Virus record (IMG/VR): IMGVR_UViG_3300029953_000001
Length of the DNA stretch: 64,000 bases
From: a virus
Strand: one strand, 5' to 3'
The notes beneath the pieces were generated by a model that was not told the origin of the DNA, did no database searches, and saw nothing but the letters and a program-made list of their open reading frames with translations. Positions 2-23,900 of the stretch are shown piece after piece (within the stretch, counting starts at the first letter, position 1; each line of letters begins with the position of its first letter). Position numbers and translations under genes: made by a program.

Positions 2-223
2 TTATCCCCTCTTAGTGGGCAAGTGGCTGGTACCGGTAAGGTACAACTCACTGATGGGTCGGGTATAAACACCCACATAGCTGTATTTGACGCTGCGGGA
101 ACTTTGGTTGATGGCGGACCTGTACCCAGCGGTGGTGGTAGCTTAGTTAGTTATGACTGCGGAAATTCCGCCACTTCGGGGAGCAGTTATGTGATTGAAC
201 TGGATATGGGAGCCTCAGCGTAA
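2..223 (+). CDS. Gly/Ser-rich hypothetical protein, 5' partial (frame open to window edge); likely structural, upstream of tail-fibre-like gene
   Basis: ORF 23..223 has GTG at 23 but frame stays open back to position 2; stop overlaps next start (TAATG). Composition GTGKVQLTDGSG..GGG typical of fibre proteins. Confidence 0.35.
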   Translation, partial: LSPLSGQVAGTGKVQLTDGSGINTHIAVFDAAGTLVDGGPVPSGGGSLVSYDCGNSATSGSSYVIELDMGASA

Positions 224-2222: not shown

Positions 2223-2537
2223 TTAAATAACCAATTTCCGTATCTCCCGGTACTCCAATAGACGTTGACGCTCCCGGTCGAACTTGAGTCCATGGGCCTC
2301 ACCCGTCTTGATGTGAATCATTTCGTGAAGTAAAGTACACTTGCATATAGCCCTCCAACCCCCCACAAAGGGGTTGATCCTGATCCTCCATATACCCTCA
2401 TCTTCCAAGTAGAGGCAGTCCCCCATGGTTGCACCACCAAGAGCCTCCCACCATACCTTAGCATCAGGCAACTCACTGTTGAAATACTTGCGATTGAAAG
2501 TGTTGTAGTAAGTTTTAAGCTGACGGTCAGATGGCAT
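2223..2537 (-). CDS. SprT-like zinc metallopeptidase domain protein
   Basis: HExxH motif in context CTLLHEMIHIKTGEAHG with preceding W/G-rich region resembling SprT/Wss1-like fold (from memory of family signature). Confidence 0.5.
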   Translation of the reverse strand: MPSDRQLKTYYNTFNRKYFNSELPDAKVWWEALGGATMGDCLYLEDEGIWRIRINPFVGGWRAICKCTLLHEMIHIKTGEAHGLKFDRERQRLLEYREIRKLVI

Positions 2538-8035: not shown

Positions 8036-8953
8036 TCAAACTGATGGTTGGTGATGCTTCGGGGGCTTTAGGGGTGAAGGTTCCGGCTTGTGGCGCTTCT
8101 TCCACTCATCGACCAGCTTCCGCATCATCTCCGGCTTGTTCATACAGTAGTAATACCGATAACTGAGTTTGTTGTTGATAGTGGGGTCATCCTGCCCTTC
8201 CCACCGCCTGTCCTTCCAGCTTACCTGCCGCTTCACGCCGTCACTACCAATCATGGGATGCCAGACATGCAGCACAGATGTCGGGAGCGTCTTGTGAGGC
8301 CAGTACAGCGTGTCCATAGCCCTCATAGCAGCGTGATCTTCGCCACCCCATCCTCTGAAGGACTCATCCCAACCACCTACAAGCTCAAAAGCTTCGCGAG
8401 GAACGATATGAATCATCGCTCCATAGTGGTGACCCGTGCGAGGGTTGGTATCATTGATAGTTAGGCTCAGGTCAGGGGGTTCCCCCAATGGGTACGGGTT
8501 GGCAGGGCTACTGGCAAGAAGCCGTTCGCTGGCTTCCTCATTTAGACGATAGAACTGACGGTAGGGCACAAACCACAGACGACGGTCTCGCTCACGAGCA
8601 TGACGAATCTCATTGACGCAGTGCATCACATGGTCAATGGCGATAAAACCATCGGCGTCCACGATAACAAGCACATCTCCGGTAGACCGGGACACCGCAT
8701 CATTGATAGCCACGGACTTGCTGAAGGCTCTATGCGTTTCAGGGTCGTCTCCGAGTATCACCTCTGCTCCGGGAAGTTGAACCTCCCAATATTGCTTGAG
8801 CCACAGGACATTCCGTAGCCGTTCTTTAGCCTTCTCTGATGGACGAAAGGGAATGATGATACTGACCCCTTCCCCCTTCTTCTCGCGGCGGAACAAACCT
8901 AAACCCAACATAATCAGCATCGCTCCTAGAATAGTCAATATTGTTATTGTCAT
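8036..8953 (-). CDS. Membrane-anchored family-2 glycosyltransferase (GT-A fold)
   Basis: N-terminal TM helix (TITILTILGAMLIMLGLGLF), then IIIPFRPSE...VLVIVDADGF (DxD) and conserved C-terminal GWDE..F.GWGGED motif typical of GT2. Confidence 0.75.
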   Translation of the reverse strand: MTITILTILGAMLIMLGLGLFRREKKGEGVSIIIPFRPSEKAKERLRNVLWLKQYWEVQLPGAEVILGDDPETHRAFSKSVAINDAVSRSTGDVLVIVDADGFIAIDHVMHCVNEIRHARERDRRLWFVPYRQFYRLNEEASERLLASSPANPYPLGEPPDLSLTINDTNPRTGHHYGAMIHIVPREAFELVGGWDESFRGWGGEDHAAMRAMDTLYWPHKTLPTSVLHVWHPMIGSDGVKRQVSWKDRRWEGQDDPTINNKLSYRYYYCMNKPEMMRKLVDEWKKRHKPEPSPLKPPKHHQPSV

Positions 8954-9741
8954 ACTTTCAATAGACCTCCCAGCGAACGGTAGGCGTCGTAAACGTTGTA
9001 CTTGATTTCCTCAACATTGGTGCGCGTCGGCTCCTGCATCTTGCCGATGATGAACTGTGTGTTGATACTAGCACTGTAATCCCGGAACTTGAAGTCTCCC
9101 CCATCCTTATCCATCTTAGGGGTGTACTCTACCCGGCGAGGGATACCGAACGCATCGGCCACAATCATACCGTGAAGCGATGATGTGACGATACGACGAC
9201 ATGCCCCTATATCCTTGAGGACAGTGAGGGGGTCTCCGCTTGGGTGAATAACACGGACAGTGTATTTTTCAGGTACAACGGCTTTGAACTTGGGTACGAG
9301 AATGGTGTCGCTGAAGTGGGGGATGATACCCAAGTCCCATCGCTTCACCTGAGGTCCAACCAACTCATCCGCTAGAATTCCGGGATCGCCCAGCGCGTAA
9401 CTACCCGGTATTCCCCTAGCTGTGAGGGGACCACGAAGGGACAGAATCTTAGCTGTGATGCCACTCGTCATTTGTTGAATATGTAACCGGGAGGTTTCGA
9501 GCAGCCGCCCTGAACCCAAAATCACACCGTCCCACAATGGCGGAATATGCTCCAAGATTGACCCGACTGACGCTATCTGAGCATGGGATATAGTCCCCCA
9601 CTCAACTTCCAAATCAGCAAAATGCTCTAAAAGGAGGGGTGCCAAACCATCACCGAAGTTTGGCACTTCCCTCCACCAGTATGCCATTGTCTGTTGCTTG
9701 AATCGCGTCCCCATTTTACTTCTCCCGTTTTTGGTCTTCAC
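8950..9741 (-). CDS. Polysaccharide pyruvyl transferase family protein (WcaK/CsaB-like)
   Basis: N-terminal NFGDGLAPLLL (N-x-GD motif) and C-terminal VTSSLHGMIVADAFGIPRRVEYTPK resembling pyruvyl transferase signature (R/S-LH-x-x-I-x-A-x-x-G-x-P...Y-x-x-K). Confidence 0.6.
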   Translation of the reverse strand: MKTKNGRSKMGTRFKQQTMAYWWREVPNFGDGLAPLLLEHFADLEVEWGTISHAQIASVGSILEHIPPLWDGVILGSGRLLETSRLHIQQMTSGITAKILSLRGPLTARGIPGSYALGDPGILADELVGPQVKRWDLGIIPHFSDTILVPKFKAVVPEKYTVRVIHPSGDPLTVLKDIGACRRIVTSSLHGMIVADAFGIPRRVEYTPKMDKDGGDFKFRDYSASINTQFIIGKMQEPTRTNVEEIKYNVYDAYRSLGGLLKV

Positions 9742-9790
9742 TAACGAGGGGAAAAGCTTTCCTACACGATGATTATTTGATTTAGCTTTT

Positions 9791-9937
9791 TCATAGGGTG
9801 TTACAGCAGGTTTTACAGTTAAATTGAAGACCGTCTTTACTACATCTATTCTTATGGAATTGGGACGTAGGAAAGGGTTCTTGACACTTAGCGCAAATCT
9901 TATAATCCAACGCCAGTGCTTTCCTCGGCGATGACAT
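9791..9937 (-). CDS. Small Cys-rich zinc-ribbon ORF (…YKICAKCQEPFPTSQFHKNRCSKDGLQFNCKTCCNTL) resembling the N-terminal zinc finger of phage HNH endonucleases; possible remnant
   Basis: C-x2-C ... F-H-K-N ... K-D-G-L-Q ... C-x2-C pattern; start taken at internal Met of ORF 9791..10024 which otherwise overlaps 9900..10427. Confidence 0.3.
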   Translation of the reverse strand: MSSPRKALALDYKICAKCQEPFPTSQFHKNRCSKDGLQFNCKTCCNTL

Positions 9938-10427
9938 CCACGACCTCTGCATCTTCAACGTCCGCTTCAAATACTTCATCCGCAACCGGCTCAGATAATT
10001 CCACAGTGGTAGGGTCTCCTCCATCAGCCGGAGCCACAGTAATCTGCGGCTGACGAGCGTTGACCTCCTCCTGAGTCAGAGCCTCGTAACTGAAGATGAA
10101 CTCAGTTGCCTGACTTGCATCCGTGACGCCTTCGGGGAGTTCCCACTTGATGCTGAGAACCTTGGTCTCGAATGCATCGAGAGCGGATTTGGGGAGCGTT
10201 ACTTTCCCACCCTGTGCTTCGATGATGGAAGCACACAGAACCGACAGACGCTTGTTCTGCCCAACGGCCTCACGCATCTGAGGGATGAGTTGACCGAGAG
10301 CAGTCTCGGGGTCGGTGCGAAGCTTCTCATTCTCGGCCTCAAGCATGAGGATGTAGTGCATGGCCTTCTTATGAGTCTTGTTGGCGGACGGGCGGATGTT
10401 CTTGCGTTTTGCGTTGGCTGATGACAT
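9900..10427 (-). CDS. Hypothetical acidic protein (175 aa), basic N-terminus then Glu/Asp-rich tail
   Basis: ORF with good coding periodicity; no motif. Confidence 0.5.
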   Translation of the reverse strand: MSSANAKRKNIRPSANKTHKKAMHYILMLEAENEKLRTDPETALGQLIPQMREAVGQNKRLSVLCASIIEAQGGKVTLPKSALDAFETKVLSIKWELPEGVTDASQATEFIFSYEALTQEEVNARQPQITVAPADGGDPTTVELSEPVADEVFEADVEDAEVVDVIAEESTGVGL

Positions 10428-10468
10428 ACTTCCTCTTTCCTTTGGCCGGAGCCCTATTTGCGACCTTC

Positions 10469-10984
10469 TTAGCGGTCTTCTTCACTGGTTTTTGACATTG
10501 CCTCTACCCACCGAGATGTAACTAAGAAGTCACTAACGGCTTGCACAAGAGCGGGGTACACAGTCGAGTTGCCCACCAACCCAACGAGCTTGGTGAGTTC
10601 CCCCATGGCCTTGACAGCCGCGACAGCCTCGTCGCCCATGTAGGTGTAGTCTTCAGGACCACAGTCAAACTGAGCCGAACCCCACATCTCGGCGAAGGCT
10701 TCCTCGGCGAGGTTGTCTACTTTATAGTCGGGGTTCTTCTTCATCATGCGGGTCTGGGGGTCAACGATGTATGCTTCCGTGGAAGGGTTGTCCGCCTTCG
10801 GGGCAGCATCGGAGGAGAGGATGGTGGTGTCGAAGATAGGGCTCCAACCGGACTGAAGACCAACACCACTCAGCAGGTCTTCATAGTATAGGTCGTCAAT
10901 TTTGCGGTACTCTCCACTTGTAGTCTTGAAGATAGCGTTCATGGGAATCTGAGCAAATTTAGTAGGCATTATGGTCTCCATCAA
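10469..10984 (-). CDS. Hypothetical protein (171 aa)
   Basis: ORF; no motif. Confidence 0.5.
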   Translation of the reverse strand: MMETIMPTKFAQIPMNAIFKTTSGEYRKIDDLYYEDLLSGVGLQSGWSPIFDTTILSSDAAPKADNPSTEAYIVDPQTRMMKKNPDYKVDNLAEEAFAEMWGSAQFDCGPEDYTYMGDEAVAAVKAMGELTKLVGLVGNSTVYPALVQAVSDFLVTSRWVEAMSKTSEEDR

Positions 10985-11005
10985 GCTAATACTGGTTTTA
11001 CAAAA

Positions 11006-11191
11006 TTAGTGACCTATGTATCTGTCGGTTACATCCATCTCCTCGAAACGGCGGGTGATGCGCTGGCTCTTACTCGGGACGTTGAATTGTTCTCCAACAA
11101 ATGCCATCGCCGCTATCCGAGTATCCACCACGCCAACTAACTCCTCATCTTCTGAATAACCAAAATTGTCGAACAAACAATAGACCGTCAA
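11006..11191 (-). CDS. Small hypothetical protein (61 aa)
   Basis: Short ORF packed between neighbours; stop adjacent to next start. Confidence 0.35.
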   Translation of the reverse strand: MTVYCLFDNFGYSEDEELVGVVDTRIAAMAFVGEQFNVPSKSQRITRRFEEMDVTDRYIGH

Positions 11192-12286
11192 TTATTTCTC
11201 CAAGGTAATGATGCGGTTAGTGAGATCCAGTTCCTTAATGCACTTGATGACAGCATCCTTGCTCAACTGGGAGCAGACAAGGATAGGGACATTCTTTGGT
11301 GGGAAAAACTGATCGGGAGGGTAAACTATTGCATCCTCAAAGTTGTTCCAATGGTAGACCGGGTTGGAATCAGTAGCCCACAGGATTTCCACTCCTGCCG
11401 GGATGATGCCAGCAGGAACCAGCAGCCGAGTAGTCTGCCCCATCCCCCAGATGGCGAGGGCGCTGACTCCCTTTAACTCAGCGTGAAGGTGTTCCTTCAT
11501 GGTGGCAATCTGGGTGTTCAGTTTGAGGGCGTAGGCGGAGATGGCTTCACACACGTTAGAGGCGTGAGGATGAGCCAGAACCCAGATGACCGGGTAAAGT
11601 TGATTGCCTTCAGCGGTGGACTCATAGGAACTCTTGTCGTACACTTCCATGCCGACACACGCTCTGACCAAGTGGCTCAGGTCGAAGTGGTTGATGTGTT
11701 CAGCGTTGAACCCTTGACAGATGGAGTTGAAGTAGCTCACGTACTTCAAGGCGTTGGGGACTTCGATGTAGATGGAGCCGTGGGGCTTCACCCAACGCTT
11801 CAAATTGTGGAGAAAACCCTGCACGTCGGGGACATGTTCCAGCACGTGGGAAACGGTAATGAGGTCATACGTATTCGGGAGCCATGCTTCCACACCGCAG
11901 CACCGAGCCTTCAACCCTTTGGCTGTGCAGCAATCGACTTCGGCCTGAGAGAGGCTGATACCTTCCACGTTGGTAAATCCGGCTGCGATGAACGCCTCCA
12001 TAAGCCCACCAGTCGCACACCCCACGTCCAGTACCGACGTGTTTACGGTAGCTCCGGCTCTCATAGTGTTGGCTACGATGGCACGGTAGTGAGCCTTCTG
12101 GGCATTGTAGGTGCCGGAAGCATAGATGGATTCCTTGCCATAGTCGATTACAGGGGTGTGGGTGGCGTACACCATCTGGCACTTCTCACAGCTAACAATC
12201 TGCTGGCCGGTGGGAGTGGTGTACAGCAATTCATTCAAGGAGTAATCGCAGCAGGGACAATGTCGTTCAGGCTTACTTGGGTTCAT
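11192..12286 (-). CDS. SAM-dependent methyltransferase with N-terminal zinc-ribbon and C-terminal C-methyltransferase-like domain (NDP-sugar C-methyltransferase architecture, TylC3-like)
   Basis: CPCCDYS...SCEKCQ zinc ribbon; SAM motif I VLDVGCATGG; acidic D after beta2; ~120-aa C-terminal extra domain as in sugar C-methyltransferases. Confidence 0.7.
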   Translation of the reverse strand: MNPSKPERHCPCCDYSLNELLYTTPTGQQIVSCEKCQMVYATHTPVIDYGKESIYASGTYNAQKAHYRAIVANTMRAGATVNTSVLDVGCATGGLMEAFIAAGFTNVEGISLSQAEVDCCTAKGLKARCCGVEAWLPNTYDLITVSHVLEHVPDVQGFLHNLKRWVKPHGSIYIEVPNALKYVSYFNSICQGFNAEHINHFDLSHLVRACVGMEVYDKSSYESTAEGNQLYPVIWVLAHPHASNVCEAISAYALKLNTQIATMKEHLHAELKGVSALAIWGMGQTTRLLVPAGIIPAGVEILWATDSNPVYHWNNFEDAIVYPPDQFFPPKNVPILVCSQLSKDAVIKCIKELDLTNRIITLEK

Positions 12287-12827
12287 ACTTATCCTTCAGT
12301 ACCTTCATCCGGTATGCTTCCTGAGCCAGACCTAGATGTTCGAGGATGGGCATCACGTAATCGTTCGACCGCTCAAGGCGGATGGCATGGGGCGGGAGTA
12401 CGGCTTCAATCTTGGGGGCGAAGGAGTCCGACGCTTCTCTGTCCTGCTGCACCCTGCCGGTGCCGTGGAACTTGAAGTCGTCGTTGCGGGGAAGGTAGAA
12501 GACGATGTTGTCGTACTCGTTGAAGTAGGCGTGGACTACATCCACCAGTTCAGGCTTGGGGTCGGTCGCGTAGACGATGCCGAGAAGAAGGGACGTGTCA
12601 GTGACCGCGTAGTCGATGTTCTCCAGACGGGATAGCTTGCGGTTCTGCTTTGCCAGAATGTAAAGCTGGTCGGCAAGGATGTTTCCTCTGTGCTCATACA
12701 CCATATCCTTTGCATACTCGCTGGCGTACTCCACGCTCAAACCCATACGCTTCATGTAGTACAGGAGCCCGTAGACGGTGGTGGATTTGCCGGTGTTCGA
12801 TGCTCCGATGAGATTGATGACCTTCAT
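12273..12827 (-). CDS. P-loop kinase-like protein (T4 gp1 dNMP kinase / AAA_28-like)
   Basis: Walker A at extreme N-terminus MKVINLIGASNTGKST, comparable with T4 dNMP kinase MKLIFLSGVKRSGKDT; size 184 aa. Confidence 0.6.
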   Translation of the reverse strand: MKVINLIGASNTGKSTTVYGLLYYMKRMGLSVEYASEYAKDMVYEHRGNILADQLYILAKQNRKLSRLENIDYAVTDTSLLLGIVYATDPKPELVDVVHAYFNEYDNIVFYLPRNDDFKFHGTGRVQQDREASDSFAPKIEAVLPPHAIRLERSNDYVMPILEHLGLAQEAYRMKVLKDKYEPK

Positions 12828-13084
12828 TTTTTGCCCTCGGCCACATTACCCGGCCAGAGTTTGTGTTTGTTTCCACGGGCATGGTCAGCAGGGCAAGGCA
12901 ACTCCACCCCTTCTGGTTCCCAGCCAGTGAAAGCGATACCCCAAGCAGCGCGGAGAGCTTGCCAGTCCTTCTGCTTGTCGCAGTGTTCACACTCACCGGG
13001 AGCGTGAAGGATTCTCTGGTCACAGTGGGGGAATTGCTCGATGGAGTCGAGGATATTGATTTCGGTTTTGATTTTCTTGAACAT
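12824..13084 (-). CDS. Small Cys/His-rich protein (86 aa)
   Basis: ORF with HCDQ...ECEHCDKQ metal-binding-like pairs. Confidence 0.45.
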   Translation of the reverse strand: MFKKIKTEINILDSIEQFPHCDQRILHAPGECEHCDKQKDWQALRAAWGIAFTGWEPEGVELPCPADHARGNKHKLWPGNVAEGKK

Positions 13085-13272
13085 TAGCTCTCCAGACTAC
13101 ATACAACGTAACTTACCCTTGGTTCCATCATGTCAGTAAGATGGTTGCTGCAAACTACAAACTCCTCATAGTCGCTATCATCCTCGGCCTGATTGTTGAA
13201 CCGCCACTCAGCCGCTTCATTACACGGAAGGCCCAGACAAGTGCCATCGTCTTTAACATAGTCACACTTCAT
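13084..13272 (-). CDS. Small acidic hypothetical protein (62 aa)
   Basis: Short ORF, start/stop coupling with neighbours. Confidence 0.4.
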   Translation of the reverse strand: MKCDYVKDDGTCLGLPCNEAAEWRFNNQAEDDSDYEEFVVCSNHLTDMMEPRVSYVVCSLES

Positions 13273-13502
13273 AGTGAAGCTCCGAACCCTATGACCGCAG
13301 CTTCAATCTTGCGAAGACGTTCAATCTCGTCTCGAATGGAACAACCAAGGTTCCGGCTAAAGGTAATGGCGTCTTCCTCATCGGCGTTGACCCACGAGAT
13401 GAAGGCATCAAGAAGTAACCGACCCCTCTCCCTCTCCTGTACTGCGTATGGTGCTGTCCCCGTCGTCAGTGTCGGTGGTTGTAGCTTGTATGGTGTCATC
13501 AT
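13269..13502 (-). CDS. Small hypothetical protein (77 aa); 5' end overlaps 3' end of helicase gene by ~95 nt
   Basis: ORF only; overlap makes it uncertain. Confidence 0.3.
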   Translation of the reverse strand: MMTPYKLQPPTLTTGTAPYAVQERERGRLLLDAFISWVNADEEDAITFSRNLGCSIRDEIERLRKIEAAVIGFGASL

Positions 13503-15195
13503 GCTTAGGTATCTCGATTCCGTGGTCTGTTAGGAACTTGGTTGCCATCTTTTTGATGTAGTCGTCATCCGTTTGAAGCTCTTCTACTATAGTTTGGTGA
13601 GGGTTTATAATCCCTTCTAACTGTTGTTTCTTAATACCCAACCGATCTGACATCACTGGGTCAGAACCGTGCTCTGAGAGAAGATAGTAGGCAGTCACAG
13701 GGTCGTCTTGACCGTCACGATGTACACGACCTATGAATTGCTTTAGGGCTGACGGTGACCAATCCAACTCAGCAAATACAACTAGGTGACAAATATCTTG
13801 AAGTCCATCCATTCCGGCACCTGAACGAAGGGACAGAAGCATCACCTTAGACTCTCCACTGATGAATTTCTGCTTGGAAACTTCCTTTTGAACGGAGGAC
13901 TCTGACCCCGAGAACATAACAGGGTTCAAGTCTTTCAACTCTTCCATGAGGACAGAATAAACCTCCCTATGCCATAACCCAACGAGCACAGGCTCCCCCG
14001 AGGTTTCTATCAACATTCGAATGAACTCAGCGGCGTAAGGGCTCTTCGCCACCCCTGTATACTGACGCAACTTAAGGTCAAACTGACCCGCAGCTTGCAT
14101 CTTCTGCCCCTTGAAATCCTGTCCTCCCTGTTTCAGGATTAGTTTAGCCAGTTCAACCGCTTGACCCTTCATCGAGTCAAGCACCTTTAGATCAGCTTCG
14201 ATAAAGTGGGGAACTGAGGTGACCTCAGGAAGCTCTCGCTTCACATCTTTACGAGTGCGACGTAGCATAAGACCGGTGGCGGCGGCGTAACTGCCAAACG
14301 CCGAGGGGTCTTTGATCCTTGGCTTTTGATCCTGATAGGTACACCACTCCCGTTCAAATTCGGCCCAAGTACCCAAGGCACCGGGGCTAAGGATGTCGAT
14401 GACGTTGTAGATTTCTCCGCCGAAGTTAAAAATGGGGGTTGCTGAGAGACCCAACCTATACTCTACATTTTCTGAAATGTGTCTGGCCGCTTTGTACTTC
14501 TGAGAGTCTCGATGACGTAATTCGTGGCACTCATCAACCACTAACCCTTTTAATACAGGGGCCAGCGTCTCGGCCCATCCTGCCAGTTTGTGATAGTTGG
14601 TGATGAACACATCTGGCAATTTACCGTTGGTGTACTTTAGGATGTCGTACGGAGTACCCTTCTTCAGGATGTGGGTGGTCAGGTCGGAGAACTTGTGAAT
14701 CTCAGCCTCCCATTGCTTGGGGAGATGAGATAAGGTGACTACAAGAGCCGGACGGGTGCGAGGGTCGGTGAGCCCCGCGATTGATATTAGGGTTTTTCCT
14801 AAACCAACGTCGTCAGCCAACAGCAGACCATTATTCGCTAACCAGAGCGAAGTTCCAGTCACCTGATAGGGTCTAGGTGGGAGTTTTAGAGTGAAGGTAG
14901 ACAGGAGTTCCTGACCTGAAAGTAGCCGGTCTACCAATGCTACTTTTTCCTTGTACTTACCAGCCTCCCCCAGCATCCTTACTTCAGCTTCGGGGGATAG
15001 TAGGAGTGGGTGGCGTTCGATAAACCACTGTAGGTCTAGGCAGTTTTCGGGTGTGGCTGAAAGTGACTGGGTGCCATACTGCCACGTGTCTATCTTCGCG
15101 AACACCCGCTTGAGGCGGATGGCGATGTGTGGTTCACAGGTGATATCAAACCTGTTCTTCTTCTTGTTATAAGTTACCGAACCATATATTTTCAA
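13408..15195 (-). CDS. SNF2-family (superfamily 2) helicase / DNA-dependent ATPase
   Basis: Motif I LADDVGLGKT, motif II VVDECHELR (DEXH), motif III LSATP, motif VI QFIGRVHRDGQ. Confidence 0.9.
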   Translation of the reverse strand: MKIYGSVTYNKKKNRFDITCEPHIAIRLKRVFAKIDTWQYGTQSLSATPENCLDLQWFIERHPLLLSPEAEVRMLGEAGKYKEKVALVDRLLSGQELLSTFTLKLPPRPYQVTGTSLWLANNGLLLADDVGLGKTLISIAGLTDPRTRPALVVTLSHLPKQWEAEIHKFSDLTTHILKKGTPYDILKYTNGKLPDVFITNYHKLAGWAETLAPVLKGLVVDECHELRHRDSQKYKAARHISENVEYRLGLSATPIFNFGGEIYNVIDILSPGALGTWAEFEREWCTYQDQKPRIKDPSAFGSYAAATGLMLRRTRKDVKRELPEVTSVPHFIEADLKVLDSMKGQAVELAKLILKQGGQDFKGQKMQAAGQFDLKLRQYTGVAKSPYAAEFIRMLIETSGEPVLVGLWHREVYSVLMEELKDLNPVMFSGSESSVQKEVSKQKFISGESKVMLLSLRSGAGMDGLQDICHLVVFAELDWSPSALKQFIGRVHRDGQDDPVTAYYLLSEHGSDPVMSDRLGIKKQQLEGIINPHQTIVEELQTDDDYIKKMATKFLTDHGIEIPKHDDTIQATTTDTDDGDSTIRSTGEGEGSVTS

Positions 15196-15221
15196 GTTAG
15201 CTACCTTGCTTTTCTAAGCAC

Positions 15222-15491
15222 TCACGAATTCGGTACTTTAGTGCAGGGACACATGGGGTTCACACACGGAATCTCTTCCGGCTTATCCCGCATCTTCCGG
15301 TTGTATTCTGCCTTCTCCTTCGCATGGTTGCGTAGCCTCTGGATGGGTTCGGCAAGGGCTTGAACGAAGCTACCCCACTGCGACACTGACTCCAAGCAGG
15401 GGTCGCCGTCAGTCTCCCGGATGAACTTGAGTGCCTTGGTCGCCAGTGTGTCGGCAAACTCGAATATGTCAACGTCAATCTTTAGACCCAT
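15222..15491 (-). CDS. Small hypothetical protein (89 aa)
   Basis: ORF between helicase and NADAR genes. Confidence 0.4.
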   Translation of the reverse strand: MGLKIDVDIFEFADTLATKALKFIRETDGDPCLESVSQWGSFVQALAEPIQRLRNHAKEKAEYNRKMRDKPEEIPCVNPMCPCTKVPNS

Positions 15492-16102
15492 GCTGGCAAC
15501 TCGCTCCTCGTCTTGCTACAGGTTTTGCACTTGTGGGCGTTCTGCCGACAATCGGCATCACACTGCTGTGCGTCATCATTGCCGGGAGCGATGAATTCGT
15601 GGATGTGGAAGTCCGGGCTCTTTACTTCTTCACGGACTATCATCCAAAGCTTGCCCAGCATGTTGTGGCCGTTGCCGTCCTCTCCCCAGCCCCAAAATGA
15701 ATCCCGATAGGAGTCTTCAATCAACTCACGGGTACCGGTTTCCATGAGCTTACGACGCACGTACTCATGCTGATACGCCTTAGCCCTGAGCAAGTCCTGC
15801 ATGATGCCAGTCCTTACATCTTCCCAATCGGGACGACGGTACTCTGTGTACTGAGCGGCAGTCTTGAAGGCTTCGTGAGCAGAGGGAGCCTTGATGATGC
15901 TCTGTTGAATGCCGAACACGGTCAGTCTATCCAGAGCCCCCTCGGGTCTGTAGTTGAACTTCTCCCAGTGGTACGCTGCTTCAGACGTGTCGAAGCGGAT
16001 ACCCTTCCACTGAAGGGTGAAGGACGAGAAGTTGGACAGGACGTAGAAGTCCTGCTCGTAGAAGAATACCTGCTGGTCGGTGTCGAGTTTATGGTTCGCC
16101 AT
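15482..16102 (-). CDS. NADAR (YbiA-like, DUF1768) domain protein
   Basis: FFYEQDFYVLSNFSSF...TSEAAYHWEKF and DSFWGWGEDGNGHNMLGKLWM match E. coli YbiA blocks (FYS..fSNF..., tsEHYFQAqKF, dayWGdGghGkGkNrLG.lLM) from memory. Confidence 0.85.
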   Translation of the reverse strand: MANHKLDTDQQVFFYEQDFYVLSNFSSFTLQWKGIRFDTSEAAYHWEKFNYRPEGALDRLTVFGIQQSIIKAPSAHEAFKTAAQYTEYRRPDWEDVRTGIMQDLLRAKAYQHEYVRRKLMETGTRELIEDSYRDSFWGWGEDGNGHNMLGKLWMIVREEVKSPDFHIHEFIAPGNDDAQQCDADCRQNAHKCKTCSKTRSELPAWV

Positions 16103-16108
16103 ACTAAC

Positions 16109-16546
16109 CTAATACCCCGGAACGGGGGAAGGTCGGCCCAGATAGCTAAACTTTGCCTCCCCGGAGCGTTCATCCACATGGTCTAATTCGGCTAAGAAAG
16201 CCAGCACATCCCCATGGCACAGATACTTCGGCTTACACCAGCAGCCCAAGGTCTTCCCGCGTAACTCTGGGAGACGGACAACTAAGTTGGGCATGGATAG
16301 GACGTACCTACGGTACTTCTCAAGCACGACCTTGCGGTTGCCGTCGTAGCCAAGGCGGAAGGGATTGTGCCAGTCGGACTGGGAGAACTCCAAGAACGAC
16401 CGGCCAATGTAGATGTCAAACTGAGGGCTCTTCCTTACATGCACAACTGTTGTCAATTCGTTGTCCTCTAAATGAAAAATCTTCCATGCTATCCGCCGTA
16501 CATAGGGTTCTAATACTGGTGATTTTTGATTTTTGACAGTTGGCAC
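16109..16546 (-). CDS. DUF4326 domain protein
   Basis: FDIYIGR...W.NPFRLG...YRRYV...LPELRGKTLGCWCKPKYLCHGDVLAFLAEL matches DUF4326 consensus (YIGRGS.WGNPF...LRGK.LGCWC.P..CHGDVL). Confidence 0.75.
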   Translation of the reverse strand: MPTVKNQKSPVLEPYVRRIAWKIFHLEDNELTTVVHVRKSPQFDIYIGRSFLEFSQSDWHNPFRLGYDGNRKVVLEKYRRYVLSMPNLVVRLPELRGKTLGCWCKPKYLCHGDVLAFLAELDHVDERSGEAKFSYLGRPSPVPGY

Positions 16547-16566
16547 TTTATACTATCGTATATCAA

Positions 16567-16740
16567 CTATTTACCCATTCCTCCGAGCAAAAGCACAACC
16601 ATGGTAGCCGCGATGAGACCGCTGACGATGGCTGGGTGGCAGTTAGGGCAGATGGCACACACACCGAGGTTCAGCACCGTGGCGAGGAAGAACGCGACGG
16701 CGAAGACCATGACGGTGATGGCAAACTTACGTAGGCGCAT
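16567..16740 (-). CDS. Small two-TM membrane protein (57 aa, MRLRKFAITVMVFAVAFFLATVLNLGVCAICPNCHPAIVSGLIAATMVVLLLGGMGK), not in ORF track
   Basis: Read from minus strand; hydrophobic segments flank a CxxC pair. Confidence 0.35.
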   Translation of the reverse strand: MRLRKFAITVMVFAVAFFLATVLNLGVCAICPNCHPAIVSGLIAATMVVLLLGGMGK

Positions 16741-16762
16741 AGCGGCCTCATTCTAAACTTTC

Positions 16763-17131
16763 TTAGAGGAAGCTCAGCAAGAGATGGACTATGTATAGCG
16801 GTTTGTTATTCAGTGTTTCTGGTAGATTCTTGTGCTTGCTCATGGTCGTGAGAAGGACGAGTTCCTTGACCTTATCGGACTGAGCGTACCGCATGAGTTG
16901 ACGGGTGACGGCGGCGAGGCTGGTACCCCCGCTGGAGTCGTCTGCTTTGCATTCTATACCGAGCGTCCCGGCAAGGAAGTCGATGCGGTCGCGGGGAGTC
17001 AAGCTGACCTCTGGTTCGAACTCCAATCCGAGGCCAGTGAGAACGAGGTTGACGCCCTGCTGCAAGTCCTTCTCGTTTTTGTACCGATACCGACAAGAAT
17101 AGAGAGCTTCACATATTTCCCGTGGGTTCAC
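16763..17131 (-). CDS. Hypothetical protein with PD-(D/E)xK-like motif (…PRDRIDFLAG…LGIECK…)
   Basis: D...(I/L)-E-C-K spacing compatible with restriction-endonuclease-like fold; weak. Confidence 0.4.
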   Translation of the reverse strand: MNPREICEALYSCRYRYKNEKDLQQGVNLVLTGLGLEFEPEVSLTPRDRIDFLAGTLGIECKADDSSGGTSLAAVTRQLMRYAQSDKVKELVLLTTMSKHKNLPETLNNKPLYIVHLLLSFL

Positions 17132-17430
17132 ATTAGCCCCTCTTTTTGAATATGACGAGCGGCTCGAATAATGTACGAGATAAATTCAGCATAGGGAGTA
17201 TCGTTCTTAGCGTATTGACACTCAGAACAACATGAGACCACGTTTAGTTCGGTGTAACCAAGACTGCTATCTTTCCTGTCCACTCCATTGCATGTGGTTT
17301 TTATTTCCCGGTTCCCTTTCCATGATTTCTTAACTCGTTCACGAGGAGGACGCGAGGTTGGTTTTGGTCTTGGCACGGTGGCGGCTGTGGATGAATTTCT
17401 TCGCACCAGCAACATCCCTGCGTTCTCCAC
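17128..17430 (-). CDS. HNH-like endonuclease motif protein (catalytic His position occupied by Arg)
   Basis: CNGVDRKDSSLGYTELNVVSCCSECQYAKND aligns to HNH consensus vDHIiP.s.GG.d..NLq.lC..CN..K with H->R. Confidence 0.4.
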   Translation of the reverse strand: MENAGMLLVRRNSSTAATVPRPKPTSRPPRERVKKSWKGNREIKTTCNGVDRKDSSLGYTELNVVSCCSECQYAKNDTPYAEFISYIIRAARHIQKEGLM

Positions 17431-17498
17431 GCTTCCCGTTGCAGTAGTCCTTACCGGGAGGCGGGAACTTGATGTCAGCCTTGCCGTCTGTGCGGTGG

Positions 17499-17687
17499 TT
17501 AGTCTTGCTCATGTGGCCACGCATCCTCGGACTTGAGAAGGTCGATGAGTTCTTTGGCTAACTCAATCTGTCCGTCATGGTATCCATCATCGTACACGTC
17601 CTCAATATCGGACGAGGTCTCATTGATGTTGCAGGGCGTCTTCTCAGCCCAATACTTCAGCATCGTTACCAGCTTTGCATTCGTCAT
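17499..17687 (-). CDS. Small acidic hypothetical protein (62 aa)
   Basis: ORF only. Confidence 0.35.
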   Translation of the reverse strand: MTNAKLVTMLKYWAEKTPCNINETSSDIEDVYDDGYHDGQIELAKELIDLLKSEDAWPHEQD

Positions 17688-17690
17688 AAG

Positions 17691-17987
17691 TTAGTCCGTA
17701 TCCAGATTGTGTTCGCCGCACTTGGGGCACGCTGGCCACTTGCCTCCGTTAGCCGCGATAGCTTTCTTCCAGCTTGCGTGCGTCCACCACTTCTGAGTGA
17801 ATGGAGCCGAGAGCCGCCAGTAGATGCACCTAGCCAACACGACCCAACTGAATTCCTTCTTCTCGGTTCGCACCATCTTGGGAAACCAGAGCCACTTGAT
17901 GTCGCTCATCAGGACGGTGAAGGGGTTGTAGCTGGAAGTCCAGAAATCGTCTTGTTCCCACGGGCAGCTATGACAGTGTATGTACAT
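17691..17987 (-). CDS. Zinc-ribbon protein (98 aa; CHSCPW...CPKCGEH)
   Basis: Two C-x2-C pairs at termini; preceded by degenerate copy of conserved leaderless promoter motif. Confidence 0.5.
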   Translation of the reverse strand: MYIHCHSCPWEQDDFWTSSYNPFTVLMSDIKWLWFPKMVRTEKKEFSWVVLARCIYWRLSAPFTQKWWTHASWKKAIAANGGKWPACPKCGEHNLDTD

Positions 17988-18045
17988 ACCCTATAATACG
18001 CAACCTTGGCTTATAACCGCACAACAGAATATGCTTGTGGTTACG

Positions 18046-18420
18046 TTACTTACTCCAAGTGATGCCTAGTCTAGCGAGGAAGGTACGGTCGTCCATACTG
18101 ATGCAGTGCTTCTTGACACATACTTTACACTGGCATTTGAGGTCAAGAGCGTGCCCGGTCTTCTGAGCACGCGGCGTGGCTCTTACTTGACCAACGACGC
18201 CAATAACAGGGATGGCAAACGGTACCTTCATCTTCAGCGGGAACGCACCGGACTCGACAAAACGCTTATGTGCCACTGCAAGGGGAGCCATACGCTGGGC
18301 AAACTCTGCGTTAGAAATCATCTTCTTCGAGACATCCGAGTACAACTGGTACACCGCTTTGATGTGCTCGGTCAATTGCTGTTGAGAAGGTACCTGTTCC
18401 ATATCTATCAATACCGCCAT
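18046..18420 (-). CDS. Hypothetical protein (124 aa)
   Basis: ORF only. Confidence 0.45.
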   Translation of the reverse strand: MAVLIDMEQVPSQQQLTEHIKAVYQLYSDVSKKMISNAEFAQRMAPLAVAHKRFVESGAFPLKMKVPFAIPVIGVVGQVRATPRAQKTGHALDLKCQCKVCVKKHCISMDDRTFLARLGITWSK

Positions 18421-18575
18421 ATGTTACTTGGTTGTGGTTAGACAGCCGGTGACGCCTGATGTACGAGTAGGATGCGTGGGCTACGAGACCTATCCGGCAG
18501 CGAGGTCTTTCTCGAAAGCAATGAAGTTTGCAAACATAAATATGTCCCCCTAATTAGGGGGACGATATCTACGAA

Positions 18576-19970
18576 TTATCGGGTTGTAAGCGTCACAGCT
18601 ACCTTAGGCTTTTTCTTCACAAACGCGACGGCAAGCTGCTTCAACCGGTTACGGGCCTTGTTGAATTCCTTCTGGCTCATGCCAATCTCGTGGCCTTCGT
18701 GAAGCCCCTCCCTGACATCCTTAGTGGTTGCAAGCTTCTTGCAGGTCTGGCAGAACTCCTTCACTGTATCCGTCGCACTACCCGCCACATAGACAGCTTC
18801 AAGAACAGGAAACACATCCGGGTCAGTGTCATGCACATACTCGATGAACTTATGCGCAAAGAAACTGGTCTCAGCCTTCTTTTCCTCTCGGTGGGTAGCT
18901 TCAGTTAGGTAGCTCGACTTAGAGTAAGCGTACTCGTCAGTTACTTCACCGCGACTATCCGGGTTAGTCTCAGCTACCAAGGATACGTTACCAACCAGAC
19001 AGACAGGGTTTTTTTGCCGCTTACCAAAGATGGTATTGAACTTGTTGGTGAGACAATAGTTGACATAACTCCGCCAGCGGCGTTCGCTGGCTCCGTACTG
19101 AGCGAAGGGGTCGAAGGTCTGGATGACATCCTCCTTACCTGCCAAACGGTGCTTGGAGGTCTGAGGCAGATACTTCATGTGAATAATGAGTTCCTGCACC
19201 CAGTCTTCAATGTCTTCCTCAATACCCTTACCGCCCAGCCGCCGTCGCACCCAGTTTTCAAGATAACGGGGGTAGCGTTCAAAAAACTCGCTGAAGTTCT
19301 TCGGCACAACAAACCCGTCGTCACCAATGAATTGACCGCCTTCACTGATGTAGAAGTTGTCCCCCCTGTAGCCTTCACGCGCTGCCAGAGTAGCTTCCTT
19401 GGGAGTCTCGACTTCTACTACGACTGGATTGTTGGGCTGGCTTTGACTATCAGCCTCCGTAGCGGTCGAAGACTCGCAGGGAGTAGACTGGGTGATACCC
19501 TTCTTAGCTGACCATCGGGTCTTTTGTGCTTTCGAAATGCGCTCCTTGACCTCAGGACTCAGGTTACGAGTACGAGTCAACCAACGAGCCTTCTGAGAGT
19601 CGGAAATGCGCTTCCGAGCCTCAGGGCTAAGCTGACGCTTCTGTACCTTAGGCTCCGACGAAACTAAAGTAGAAGGTACAGCCCCGATACGAGCCAGTAC
19701 CTGACTGGTGATGGGCTCCAAAAGCTGAGCAGTGATAGTCTCAGCGAGGTAATTGAGGACGACCTTAAAAGCCGTATCAACTGATTCATTAGGAACAATA
19801 TTTGGTGTCTCTTTGGAGCCGACTGTCGAAGTTTCGACTTTGATTTCCGGCAACAGGTCAGGTACGCTATTCGAAACTGTAGACTGATGCATCCTGCCTC
19901 CACGGCAAAACAAAACCCACGGGTTGGTGGGACTAAGGGTTTCAACACTTCCACTACAATACCGCCGCAA
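18576..19970 (-). CDS. Hypothetical protein with two NUMOD3-like DNA-binding repeats and C-terminal alpha-helical domain (probable start at internal Met, ~19895)
   Basis: Repeats LSPEARKRISDSQKARW and LSPEVKERISKAQKTRW match NUMOD3 consensus (s.E.r.KIS.a.kg); no nuclease motif seen. Confidence 0.5.
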   Translation of the reverse strand: MRRYCSGSVETLSPTNPWVLFCRGGRMHQSTVSNSVPDLLPEIKVETSTVGSKETPNIVPNESVDTAFKVVLNYLAETITAQLLEPITSQVLARIGAVPSTLVSSEPKVQKRQLSPEARKRISDSQKARWLTRTRNLSPEVKERISKAQKTRWSAKKGITQSTPCESSTATEADSQSQPNNPVVVEVETPKEATLAAREGYRGDNFYISEGGQFIGDDGFVVPKNFSEFFERYPRYLENWVRRRLGGKGIEEDIEDWVQELIIHMKYLPQTSKHRLAGKEDVIQTFDPFAQYGASERRWRSYVNYCLTNKFNTIFGKRQKNPVCLVGNVSLVAETNPDSRGEVTDEYAYSKSSYLTEATHREEKKAETSFFAHKFIEYVHDTDPDVFPVLEAVYVAGSATDTVKEFCQTCKKLATTKDVREGLHEGHEIGMSQKEFNKARNRLKQLAVAFVKKKPKVAVTLTTR

Positions 19971-20209
19971 TCGTCATTGGACAAACAAAAAACGGTTTAC
20001 CGAAGCTTAAATTAGAGCTTCAGTAACCGTTTTAGACCGCACTCAGTTGTTGACTCAACCAATACTTCACCCTCTACCCAAGACGATTACAACGTAGACT
20101 GAAATTCTTCCCGGCTGAAAGGGGGAGCATCATCCACGTGTAGATTGGTTGTACTCTTATCTAAGACTGAAGTCAAGGGGGAGGTGGAAAGAAAAATTAG
20201 GGGTGAAAC

Positions 20210-20398
20210 TCAGTCGTCTTCGCAGCCATTAATGTTGACTTGTACATCGGCTAGACCCCGCTTCAGGCGGGACCTGAAAACTTCGGGAGGGAGTCTGGAT
20301 ACCTGCTGATCGAAACGAGCGAGTGTGTCCTCAAGTGTAACACGACTCGTGAGGATAGCGAGAATCGGGGTGTTTCCTGAGAACTTATCTACTGCCAT
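20210..20398 (-). CDS. Small hypothetical protein (62 aa)
   Basis: ORF only. Confidence 0.35.
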   Translation of the reverse strand: MAVDKFSGNTPILAILTSRVTLEDTLARFDQQVSRLPPEVFRSRLKRGLADVQVNINGCEDD

Positions 20399-20438
20399 AG
20401 ATTTTCATCCTTTAATAAGGGCATTCATATTGGAATTT

Positions 20439-20840
20439 TTATTCACGTAGAGCCCCGATCAACTGTTCCACGACACGTTGGAACCCATTCATAATAGTCA
20501 ACTGGTTGGCTGAAAGCACCCTCTGCTCCACCGCCATCTCCCGAATTAGGTTAAACTGTTCATGATGAACGTCTGCTTGTGTCTTGACGCTTTCCGCCAG
20601 TTGATGAACTGACTCCACGAGTTTATCCTGAGCAGCAGATTGTGCCTGTATGAGCCTTTTTAGGTCTTGGTTGCTCTCTGCGATGACCTTGGTGTTAGCA
20701 TCGACCGTCGTTTTGAAAGTCATAATTTGTACTTGTGACCAAATGAAAAGTCCCACACAAATGAAGGCCGAACCAGTTGCGGCACCGTATTGCCAGATGG
20801 GCGTAAGAGGATTTGTGGCTTGAAGCAGCATCATAAGCAT
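20439..20840 (-). CDS. N-terminal TM helix + coiled-coil protein (i-spanin-like topology, speculative)
   Basis: Hydrophobic stretch AFICVGLFIWSQVQI followed by heptad-rich region. Confidence 0.45.
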   Translation of the reverse strand: MLMMLLQATNPLTPIWQYGAATGSAFICVGLFIWSQVQIMTFKTTVDANTKVIAESNQDLKRLIQAQSAAQDKLVESVHQLAESVKTQADVHHEQFNLIREMAVEQRVLSANQLTIMNGFQRVVEQLIGALRE

Positions 20841-20902: not shown

Positions 20903-23900
20903 CTAACGGCCTCTCCTATGGAAGGGGTTTCGGACTACATCACCCATAGAACTTTCCGTAATTCTTTGAATTTTTCGCATCCGCTCAAGAATCTGGAGGT
21001 CCCGCAAGATAACACCGTCCATATTAATGATAGCCCCTGAAGGGAGGTTCATTTGCTGTGCGATGAGTAGTGACTGACCGGAGGGGTCAATTTTCAAACC
21101 ACCTTCTTCCATGAGCCACTTTTGAGCCTTCCATGCACAGAGTTGAGCCGCGTCCACCATGTCATCATGGCTACCCTTTTCAAGCGGAGCCGCGACCCGA
21201 ATCTGGTACTTGTTAACGTACTCAGCTTCGACCAACCGCAGTTCCTTGAGGAACTTTGGAACGTAGGGGAACCGGCAGCGGGTATCGCGGACATAACCTT
21301 GGAGCACGAAAGCCATCTGTGAGTTCAATGTCGCCGTGAGGTTCACGAGTTCAATGTTGTGAATCTTGTTGAGTTCGAGCAACTGCACAAGCTGCTGTCC
21401 CCCGTGTTGGTCGGTTGCACCACGCCAGCAGGGCATCAGTACATTCAGAGCCTTGAGCCACGCTAGGATGTCTTCCAGCGGGAGAGCCTTGAATCCGACG
21501 TACTTCTCCAATCCCTGTATGTGTCCCACACCGGGGCCTTCAAACTTCTCCCCGACCATCATACGGTCGATGTAGTCATAGACCAAGTGAATCGGCTGTG
21601 AACCCCCGACATACTCCAAGTGGCCGATTGCGACCGCCGTAGCGTCATGACTCATACCCAAGTCGATTGCCCAGAAATACTGGCGACCGATGTCCTTGGG
21701 ATGGAAGTGAGACAGGTTGAACCGAGCAGAAGTTTCGTCGGGCTCTTCAAAACCACCATTCGTCTTGACATACTTCACATCAGTGCAAGCCTGAATTTGT
21801 GCTTCAGTCAAGTACGATTCAGAAGACTCAAGGAAGTTACCCCCGTATTCAGCCTTGAACGTGAGTGGGTTCTTGGTATACTCCGAACGCAGGGTTTCGG
21901 ACAGGATGGTAGGGTTCATCTCCGCTGTGGATAGCCGGATGGTGAATACCTTAGTCTCCTTCGCACCACGCTCCATGGCGTCCTTGTGAATGTCGAACAT
22001 CTTACCGACCTTCGTCCAAGGGCTGGAGATGGAAAGCACAAGAGAGTCTTGGAAGGATTTGTATTCCTCCGGCTTCATAGTGGCCGCAGCGACGAGTTGG
22101 TCTACCCAGCCGCCCTTGAGGTCTTCCGCGTGCTTGAAGTTGACTGTAGACGGCGTGGCGGCTCCGTAGACCTCATCTGAGGATGAGCCCTTGGAGGAAC
22201 GGAAGTGAGCGAACTCGTCCAGAGCGAGGAAGATATTCGAAGGGCCACGGACGGCATTGGTTGTGCTGGCGTAGCTTTTGACGTTAATGGACGGAGTAAC
22301 GTCACGCTTGTGACGGTCAGCTTCAGACACGAAGCCCATCCATGATGAACTGGAAGCCTTCAGATACGGGTTGAAGAAAGGAGCCCGGTTGATGTCTTCG
22401 CGGAGCTTGTCGTAGAGACGGTTGGCACCCTCTTCGTCCTGAGCCATGAATGTGAAGTCGATGTGCGACCCGGCGATGAGGCCGAAGTATTCCTGAGGCG
22501 ACCGGATGTTTAGCAGTTTGTAGAGCTTGTAGGCACCGATGGCGGACACTACCTGAGAGTTGTGGGTGACATTGAAGTTCTTGCCGAACAAATACAGACT
22601 GGTAGGGTTGGTAGTGGTAATACACCGCATGGGCATCCTACCGACAGGTTGAATGTCAGTGATGAACCTCCATTTTTGAGTGGAGTTTACTGTACTAGGG
22701 AGTTCTGCCAATTTCCTTGGAAGACGGAAGACCGGTAGGGTGCCTGTCCATGTTACCCTGTATTTCTCGCCGCAATCCCGGTCATTTAGGATAGCTCTGC
22801 CCTCCCCCCAATAGGGTTTCAGTCCGAGTGAAGCAGCGAGGTGGTATACCCCCTCCGCCAAACTACGATTTGTGTTTGTGAAGTCACATCGGCTGCGGCT
22901 GCAACTCCCATCTGTGTCCATCAGCCCCTGCAACAGAGATAACCTTTGCGGCTCGGACGCCCATAGATATTGATGAGGGATGTGCTTGTTCTTCAAGACT
23001 CCAAGTTGACGCAAGGGAGAGAACAACCCCAGTACGTGCCACCGAGTGGGTGCTTTCTCGTTTTGGTAGAAAGTCATACCCGCCGATTCAAAGTAGGGTA
23101 GTATCTTGTCTGCATCTTCTGGGGCAGCGGTGATAATCCCGCAATCGCTATTTCCATCCCCCAGCCATACCCCCAAACAGTAAGGGTCGAGAAGCAGGTC
23201 AATGTCAGGACAGGTTACTGCCTTTGCAAGTGGGATGCAGTGGTTTGTTTCCTGTTTCTTACCCACCCTTAGAGTAGCTAGGAGTTCTTCGGTAGTGCGC
23301 GTAGTGCCCCCAATGGCGTGCTTAGAACACTTGGCGGCTTTCCGGTCAACCTTGGTTAGGGTGTTCCACAGGTGACCGCCATGGGCGAATACGTGTGTAC
23401 CATCATCAAAGGAGACCTTGAACGCCTCTAACTCTTCAACTGGATGAGCGTACTTTACTTTGTAAACCTGTCCATCCTCACCGAATACGGCGTCTCCTTC
23501 TTCTAAATCGCCGTTTCGCTTACATCCATCTGGTGTTGGGATAGGCTCATCAACGTGAAGCATCTTCCCGCCACGCCGACCCGCAAAAATCGCCGCCTCT
23601 GTGAAGCCCCTCTCCGGCATGTCCCGCCAGTCATTGACGTTGCAACGTCCTTCTTCATGAAGGATATGCAGGCACTCTTCCTCGCTGCACTCGCGAACAG
23701 GGTTCTCGCGGAACACATCCCACATCTGTACCTTAATAGGAGCGAAGTCAATTGGAACTGCGAAGATACACTTCACAATCAACCGCTGAAGCGGGTACAG
23801 TTTAATGTTCAGACCTTGTGGTGACTCGATAAATTCAATGGCATTGAGAAGTTTACTCGCATCTTCTATGGCTCCATCTATGACTTTTCCAAAAACACTA

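Follow-up and report, generated by a model that had tools for sequence, protein, structure and literature searches.

NADAR enzymes strip ADP-ribose from guanine (PMC11543638). Guanine-N2-ADP-ribose on single-stranded DNA is hydrolysed by all the NADAR subtypes that have been tested (PMC11543638, PMC11125620), and every one of these, including YbiA and gp30.3 of phage T4, removed guanine-ADP-ribose in vitro (PMC11125620). The substrate range extends to guanosine in RNA (PMC11833690) and, for some members including the YbiA type, to cytidine (PMC12945103). Catalytic glutamate and lysine residues have been assigned by experiment: E88/K95 in the E. coli C7 enzyme, K50 in PnNADAR and E36/K43 in T4 AdfN (PMC11543638, PMC11825919). 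A myxobacterial YbiA-type NADAR is the antitoxin neutralising another ADP-ribosyltransferase (ART), YarT (PMC11125620). Three unrelated phage NADARs, the orphan AdfN proteins, restore plating on DarTG1 hosts, and those of Bas32 and Bas60 work as single proteins with no other phage factor required (PMC11825919). For a second domain, DUF4326, Iyer et al. reported in 2021 and 2022 a link with NADAR, Macro and SLOG that is seen in giant viruses as well as in jumbo phages (PMC7824862, PMC9503650): it is found fused to all three, and also to replication or restriction-modification components (PMC7824862). The published assignment places DUF4326 in the rhodanese-phosphatase superfamily, and Iyer et al. 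predict that it acts on ADP-ribose products by processing the terminal phosphates of their ribose (PMC9503650). LOG-like homologues of the anti-Avs protein ORF83 from amoeba viruses carry DUF4326 as well (bioRxiv 10.1101/2025.06.06.658234). Here we describe adjacent NADAR and DUF4326 genes in IMGVR_UViG_3300029953_000001, a stretch of 64,000 nt that is referred to in full as the window; family scans took in about 60 of its open reading frames (ORFs).

An earlier note on this DNA had placed the two genes next to each other at 15482-16546, and a pair of minus-strand ORFs fills this interval exactly:

15482..16102, minus strand: NADAR gene, 206 aa, with the domain at aa 12-165
16109..16546, minus strand: DUF4326 gene (Pfam PF14216), longest ORF 145 aa, with a GTG start at 16546

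The profile searches that the note had put forward as a check recovered both families above their cut-offs, so that the finding was not refuted. PF08719 matches the NADAR with E=1.2e-26 and 94.3 bits (cut-off 35.1) over profile positions 1-162 of 163, and PF14216 matches DUF4326 with E=1.8e-21 and 77 bits (cut-off 25). The NADAR ATG begins 6 nt past the DUF4326 stop in the window, no terminator-like site was found between the two genes, and the pair is probably translationally coupled. The observation is confirmed; the interpretation that the note attached to it, an ADP-ribose-reversal module directed against DarT, is partly supported.

The NADAR is further matched by TIGR02464 (88.7 bits, above the cut-off of 73.7) and by phrog_1017 (E=4e-34), and the window protein has the alpha+beta fold of the family. 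Its score against NF053876, the model of the DS-32 NADAR anti-phage protein, is 78.6 bits and lies under the cut-off of 240, and PADLOC returned for the NADAR only a weak match to PDC-M42C. The motifs LSNFS, TSEAAYHWEKF and FWGWGEDGNGHNMLGKL stand literally in the sequence; the motifs that had been quoted for the protein are likewise present, except that EHYFQ is the YbiA consensus, the block here being SEAAYHWEKF. Within that block E41 and K48, seven residues apart, form the catalytic pair. Both are invariant in 30 homologues, as are E129 and D134, and both line up with residues of T4 gp30.3 and the Salvo NADAR. The catalytic residues are thus retained on alignment, the pair being Glu/Lys and not the Glu/His that had been named (PMC11543638, PMC11825919). 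As judged from its sequence, the protein is an N-glycosidase of the YbiA/stand-alone type that is most likely catalytically competent, and in sequence it comes closest to YbiA (E=2.8e-13).

The clade to which this NADAR belongs is strikingly conserved: the best 120 of 2,585 matches (E<=0.001) are 55-96% identical, mostly 60-70%. Its members are spread as a stand-alone gene over very diverse phage contexts and are also found in proteobacterial and Saccharibacteria genomes. The C-terminal tail of the window protein (aa 166-206, encoded at 15482..15610) carries the pattern C-x3-C-x7-C-x2-C, which recurs only in the two closest relatives of the protein, P0121 and P0122; the tail is modelled poorly, with low confidence, and is possibly an appendage that binds zinc or nucleic acid. 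A different Cys-rich tail is present in another clade member, P0143. No ART-family match was obtained among the ORFs scanned in 8036..20840, about 7 kb on each side of the pair with some small ORFs outside the scan, and the window NADAR is therefore counted as an orphan.

DUF4326 is matched also by phrog_464 (E=8e-25), and YIGR, WHNPF and LRGKTLGCWCKPKYLCHGDVL are literally present in it, WHNPF and CHGD being nearly invariant. Across about 30 aligned homologues, the invariant or near-invariant positions are Y46, G48, R49, W59, N61, P62, R71, Y78, C102, W103, C104, K105, C110, H111, G112 and D113; conservation of this kind (YIGR, W.NPF, CWC, CHGD) points to an enzyme or a metal site. The same homologues, the 84%-identical P0002 among them, start at M-T-x-VVHVRK. 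The corresponding position in the window is a TTG at 16456, preceded 7 nt upstream by GAGGA, and because the majority of homologues begin in this way it is preferred as the start; the true product is probably one of 115 aa. The 30 extra N-terminal residues of the 145-aa form are modelled with low confidence. The public gene call for P0001, which is 99% identical, uses the long form, and for the N-terminal 30 aa a tblastn match to Kuttervirus phages reaches, in frame, beyond the start annotated for Det7 gene 67, which is not informative: the start stays ambiguous.

In an AlphaFold2 model of DUF4326 the core, aa 31-125, has a predicted local distance difference test score (pLDDT) above 93. A first strand is followed by short ones, the NPF loop and a pair of helices; after these come a strand with C-W-C at its end and a helix that begins with H-G-D. 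C102 and C104 are located at the end of strand 99-102, the loop C-K-P-x-x-(x)-C-H contains no Arg, and the helix starts at 111. The model neither confirms nor refutes the rhodanese-phosphatase assignment (PMC9503650), with which its succession of strand-end Cys, loop and helix is compatible. A sequence search with the DUF4326 profile retrieved no solved structure (the best match, at E=0.21, is spurious), a Foldseek search of the model against the PDB gave nothing significant, profile-profile comparison of DUF4326 with NADAR produced no match, and neither did PADLOC for DUF4326. The family is very large: with clustering at 50% identity, 20,666 clusters give a match of E<=1e-3, and 568 of 50,697 phage records (~1%) have a detectable member. 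Ten multidomain DUF4326 proteins were sampled; they include fusions to PHP, a DnaQ-like exonuclease, AAA_25 and a SLOG domain, and no NADAR fusion was seen among the ten.

Gene neighbourhoods were counted at 80 viral NADAR loci, 80 DUF4326 loci and 44 bacterial NADAR loci. DUF4326 is present in 10 of the 80 viral NADAR loci and in one of the 44 bacterial ones, and NADAR in 7/80 DUF4326 loci. For the NADAR clade, DUF4326 is the most frequent neighbour family (9-10 of 80 loci), the next one occurring in 6/80 loci. For DUF4326, NADAR is among the top neighbours, behind a DUF2800/PD-(D/E)XK nuclease (11/80), an Enc34-type protein that binds single-stranded DNA (7/80) and PolA+UDG (6/80): the strongest contextual links of DUF4326 are DNA replication/repair proteins, in agreement with PMC7824862. 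In relatives of the phage the two genes are adjacent in loci L001 (1 nt gap), L002, L164/L165 (3 nt) and L166/L167 (136 nt); in L004/L005 a distance of 1.4 kb lies between them, and in L168 a 771-aa ORF. Divergent DUF4326 genes (GKNLACWC..PCHADVL) directly flank NADAR in unrelated viral contigs and in either order, with NADAR first in L088/L097, DUF4326 first in L123 and a 225-nt gap in L125/L127; a divergent DUF4326 is found <=2.5 kb from NADAR in L112 and L147 as well. Adjacency is thus observed in at least three unrelated viral contig types. Six non-redundant NADAR loci have DUF4326 within 2.5 kb, against a chance expectation of well under one in 80, a rough estimate that assumes DUF4326 in ~1% of phage genomes at a random position. 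As this expectation, rough as it is, lies far below what is observed, the link between NADAR and DUF4326 is real but facultative, and is confined to a minority of loci. The earlier note had described DUF4326 as fused or linked to NADAR in polyvalent proteins; the association is borne out by the literature (PMC7824862, PMC9503650) and by the recurrent neighbourhood, and the cited literature does not describe these proteins as polyvalent.

The explanation that we tentatively favour, and hold to be quite possible, is that the NADAR is an orphan antitoxin-like enzyme erasing base ADP-ribosylation from phage nucleic acid, and that DUF4326 assists it as an accessory enzyme whose place of action would be DNA or the ribose-phosphate product. 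By analogy with characterized enzymes, the NADAR would most likely hydrolyse the bond between C1'' of ADP-ribose and the exocyclic amino group of guanine, possibly also of cytosine, in single-stranded DNA or RNA. The marks erased would be those put on phage nucleic acid by a putative host ART, such as DarT1, pierisin/ScARP-like toxins or YarT, and the NADAR would act like AdfN, as an orphan, antitoxin-like counter-defence enzyme. Two premises of this explanation had been put forward earlier and are published: the removal of ADP-ribose from guanine by NADARs (PMC11543638), and the use of a phage NADAR in counter-defence, for which the defeat of DarTG1 by orphan AdfN is the precedent (PMC11825919). 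DUF4326 is predicted to be a small alpha/beta domain with a Cys-x-Cys at the end of a strand, a short loop, a Cys-His-Gly-Asp helix start and conserved Arg, Asn and Lys. It would serve at replicating DNA as an accessory enzyme for the class of substrates on which NADAR acts, one possibility being a cysteine-dependent phosphatase for the ribose-linked phosphate of ADP-ribose remnants. A more specific version, in which DUF4326 is an enzyme that acts on DNA together with NADAR and, for instance, removes a phosphoribosyl remnant or a second type of ADP-ribose adduct at replication forks, appears distinctly unlikely; were it true, the pair would be a two-step nucleic-acid de-ADP-ribosylation/repair module with a toxin coverage broader than that of single-gene AdfN.

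Several observations weigh against the erasure of nucleic-acid ADP-ribosylation by this pair. The window NADAR is of the YbiA type, and E. coli YbiA, which is among its structural neighbours, gave no protection from DarT1 in vivo despite its activity in vitro (PMC11125620). It passes TIGR02464, a model named for the riboflavin-intermediate N-glycosidase, and since this is an 'equivalog_domain' model an annotation pipeline would give the NADAR that name. DUF4326 lacks a phosphatase loop of the canonical C-X5-R form, and the binding of zinc could be all that its four Cys/His residues do. The clearest adjacent cases are relatives of the window phage. L164, the differently organised one, shares with the window the upstream gene p122, listed below, and so is not fully independent: plain synteny accounts for part of the conservation. 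The partner is missing in 73/80 DUF4326 loci, 70/80 viral NADAR loci and 43/44 bacterial NADAR loci, and with ~88-91% of viral loci that have one gene lacking the other nearby, the module envisaged in the earlier note is not supported as a tight one.

The pair might instead be aimed at soluble molecules derived from ADP-ribose (immune signals or toxins from host TIR, SIR2 or ART enzymes, or RNA-repair by-products) and not at nucleic-acid adducts, NADAR cutting the N-glycosidic bond and DUF4326 taking off the terminal phosphate on the ribose. This is what Iyer et al. propose explicitly for phage NADAR and DUF4326 (PMC9503650), and it is in keeping with the fusion of DUF4326 to SLOG/LOG-type domains (cpYpsA in P0344, PF10686 in P0113) and with its occurrence on the LOG-like ORF83 homologues (bioRxiv 10.1101/2025.06.06.658234): as NADAR and LOG are both ribosyl N-glycosidases, a shared partner working on the ribose-phosphate product is plausible. 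The experimental substrates of NADARs, however, are base-linked ADP-ribose in DNA or RNA or riboflavin intermediates, and no experimental activity on cyclic or signalling ADP-ribose has been found (PMC11543638, PMC11125620, PMC11833690). The strongest context of DUF4326 is with DNA replication/repair proteins, and the scanned ORFs of the window gave no Pfam match to Macro, Nudix, SLOG or NAD-salvage domains. Breakdown of soluble molecules is judged rather unlikely. Much the same probability, a low one, is given to adjacency without a functional bond, in which two independent mobile accessory genes each work alone. The high proportion of loci with a single gene and the very variable neighbourhoods, where even the largest neighbour cluster accounts for only 11/80 DUF4326 and 6/80 NADAR loci, speak for independence, as do the known AdfN NADARs, which act as single proteins (PMC11825919), and the 771-aa ORF that separates the two genes in L168. 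Against it stand the recurrence of adjacency with divergent DUF4326 subtypes, in both orders and in unrelated contigs, the published domain fusions (PMC7824862, PMC9503650) and the excess of the six non-redundant loci over the rough chance expectation.

Another partner for the NADAR had been suggested in the earlier note, namely an ART-like protein encoded by the phage itself:

2588..3685, minus strand: ART-like protein, 365 aa, with first an InPase domain (E=1.7e-34) and then a weak PARP-like stretch (E=0.0045; LYHGT, GGAVYLA)
2223..2537, minus strand: SprT-like protease gene, flanking the ART-like gene
3811..5208, plus strand: 465-aa metallophosphoesterase gene, on the other flank

The InPase part resembles the C terminus of a phage portal protein (9b41_L, E=1.4e-19), and the product may be a head-packaged effector; its ART activity is putative, and PADLOC gave no match for it. 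The NADAR would in this case regulate or reverse ADP-ribosylation by the phage's own protein, for self-immunity or for the timing of host take-over. The order of an InPase domain and then a weak PARP-like stretch within one protein, and the fit of the portal-like part with a packaged effector, are consistent with this, and there are parallels: T4 has both ARTs and a NADAR (PMC9503650), and the ART YarT has a YbiA-type NADAR for its antitoxin (PMC11125620). Nevertheless, ~12 kb and many unrelated genes lie between the NADAR and 2588..3685, the PARP match is under the Pfam threshold and has no structural confirmation, and no homologue of the ART-like protein occurs in ~170 related loci, which span only 5-10 kb per side; the suggested partnership is not supported and appears very unlikely. 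Very improbable, too, is that the NADAR is a YbiA-like metabolic clean-up N-glycosidase for riboflavin intermediates or similar ribosylamines, with no role in conflict: riboflavin genes, whether as a ribA/ribD fusion, by linkage or in the wider context, were not detected among the scanned ORFs, the clade is stand-alone in very diverse phage contexts, and YbiA-type enzymes also clear ADP-ribose from guanine and cytidine (PMC11125620, PMC12945103).

On the minus strand the pair is accompanied by four further genes:

13408..15195, minus strand: SNF2-family helicase (PF00176, E=2.5e-25, and Helicase_C), the downstream syntenic neighbour
15222..15491, minus strand: 89-aa ORF, its start overlapping the NADAR 3' end by 10 nt
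16567..16740, minus strand: small hydrophobic protein, 57 aa, directly upstream of DUF4326, apparently with two membrane-spanning segments
16763..17131, minus strand: p122, a 122-aa protein with no family match, 67-79% identical in phage relatives and present also in L164

Because of the overlap of 15222..15491 with the NADAR end, the genes are placed in one long minus-strand unit that reaches the SNF2 helicase. The 89-aa ORF is in the transcription unit of the NADAR and is lineage-specific: it has no Pfam or NCBIfam match, is kept only in L002 (100%) and L001 (58%), and is missing after NADAR in L164 and L166. As a third member of the module it was rejected, not being conserved beyond the closest relatives. 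The SNF2 helicase follows NADAR in L001, L166/L167, L168, L004/L084 and L086, and is not found in L164/L165, where other genes lie downstream. The top PADLOC models for this helicase are DpdE and ZorD (E ~1e-30), scores that probably reflect generic SNF2 similarity. Counterparts of the 57-aa hydrophobic ORF precede DUF4326 in L001 (74% identity) and L166 (E=6e-6), and a weak one is present in L164 (E ~1e-3 in a tiny database); the gene may be co-transcribed with the pair, and its membership of it is uncertain. In p122 a conserved motif, D..GIECK...T, resembles that of a small PD-(D/E)XK-type nuclease.

Beyond this unit, the following genes were recognized in the window:

20903..23938, minus strand: large terminase subunit, matching several PHROG terminase families (best E=2.6e-32), ~5 kb from the pair
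8036..8953 and 38304..38972, minus strand: family-2 glycosyltransferases (GT2), part of a sugar/methyl transfer gene set
8950..9741, minus strand: polysaccharide pyruvyl transferase, of the same set
11192..12286, minus strand: S-adenosylmethionine (SAM) methyltransferase, of the same set
32234..32791 (minus strand), 40033..40794 (plus strand), 43646..44296 (plus strand) and 46940..47806 (minus strand): free-standing homing endonucleases (GIY-YIG, NUMOD3) and a GmrSD_N (DUF262) protein
223..693, plus strand: Mtd_N protein, 156 aa, with a Major tropism determinant N-terminal domain (E=1.6e-14)

The window is DNA of a large uncultured phage. Its large terminase establishes the phage context of the NADAR; a LAGLIDADG/Hom_end homing-endonuclease domain interrupts the terminase at ~aa 324-375 and is accordingly regarded as an intein. 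Megablast of the 14.5-17.5 kb region against the 50,697 phage records gave no match, which indicates that the phage has no close cultured relative, and P0001, the 99%-identical DUF4326, is located on metagenome contigs of up to 183,684 bases. Many ORFs of the window have no family match. The synteny with L001 is kept for the pyruvyl transferase and GT2, and the density of selfish and nuclease genes is unusually high. An AAA_28 protein at 12273..12827 was considered as a NadR-type nicotinamide-riboside kinase and dropped, as there was no NCBIfam or PDB support. The Mtd_N domain is one typically seen in receptor-binding proteins whose diversity is generated by retroelements.

Nothing in this locus departs from published knowledge. 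As the counter-defence role of phage NADARs (2025) and the association of DUF4326 with NADAR (2021-2022) have both been published, the pair is no new kind of system. DUF4326, a family of phages, bacteria and giant viruses, has no function assigned by experiment, and a compact pair in which the catalytic residues are intact offers a convenient way to find one; it could also show whether phage NADARs of the YbiA type protect from defence toxins that ADP-ribosylate DNA or RNA.

E. coli YbiA (2B3W) and the NADAR of Phytophthora nicotianae (8BAU) are stand-alone proteins; the window gene is encoded by a phage and has an extra C-terminal Cys4 tail. YbiA sits in the LexA-controlled dinG-ybiB operon, whereas the window NADAR is found neither there nor in a eukaryote. 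With DarG1 of G. lovleyi (8BAT) and E. coli C7 it has in common the superfamily and the Glu/Lys catalytic pair, and the combination that characterizes the DarG1 type, a DarT1 operon together with close similarity to DarT1-linked NADARs, is absent from it. The AdfN proteins (T4 gp30.3, Bas32 and Bas60) are, like the window NADAR, phage orphans without an adjacent toxin. E36/K43 of T4 AdfN have the same spacing as E41/K48 of the window protein, and removal of guanine-ADP-ribose would be expected of the latter by analogy. The kinship to a tested anti-DarT factor that the counter-defence proposal implied is one of motifs only: BLASTP of the window NADAR with T4 AdfN gives E=0.08 with just LSNF..E..K in common, Bas32 and Bas60 lying outside this comparison. 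T4 gp30.3 is without the WG.G..G.N.LG block that the window NADAR has, and the window NADAR, unlike AdfN, is partnered by DUF4326 and ends in a Cys-rich tail. The systems of Iyer et al. consist of the same two domains in the same kind of genome, that of a large phage, and the link to replication and repair is reproduced here; in those systems the domains are fused into single proteins, whereas in the window they are encoded by separate, probably translationally coupled genes.

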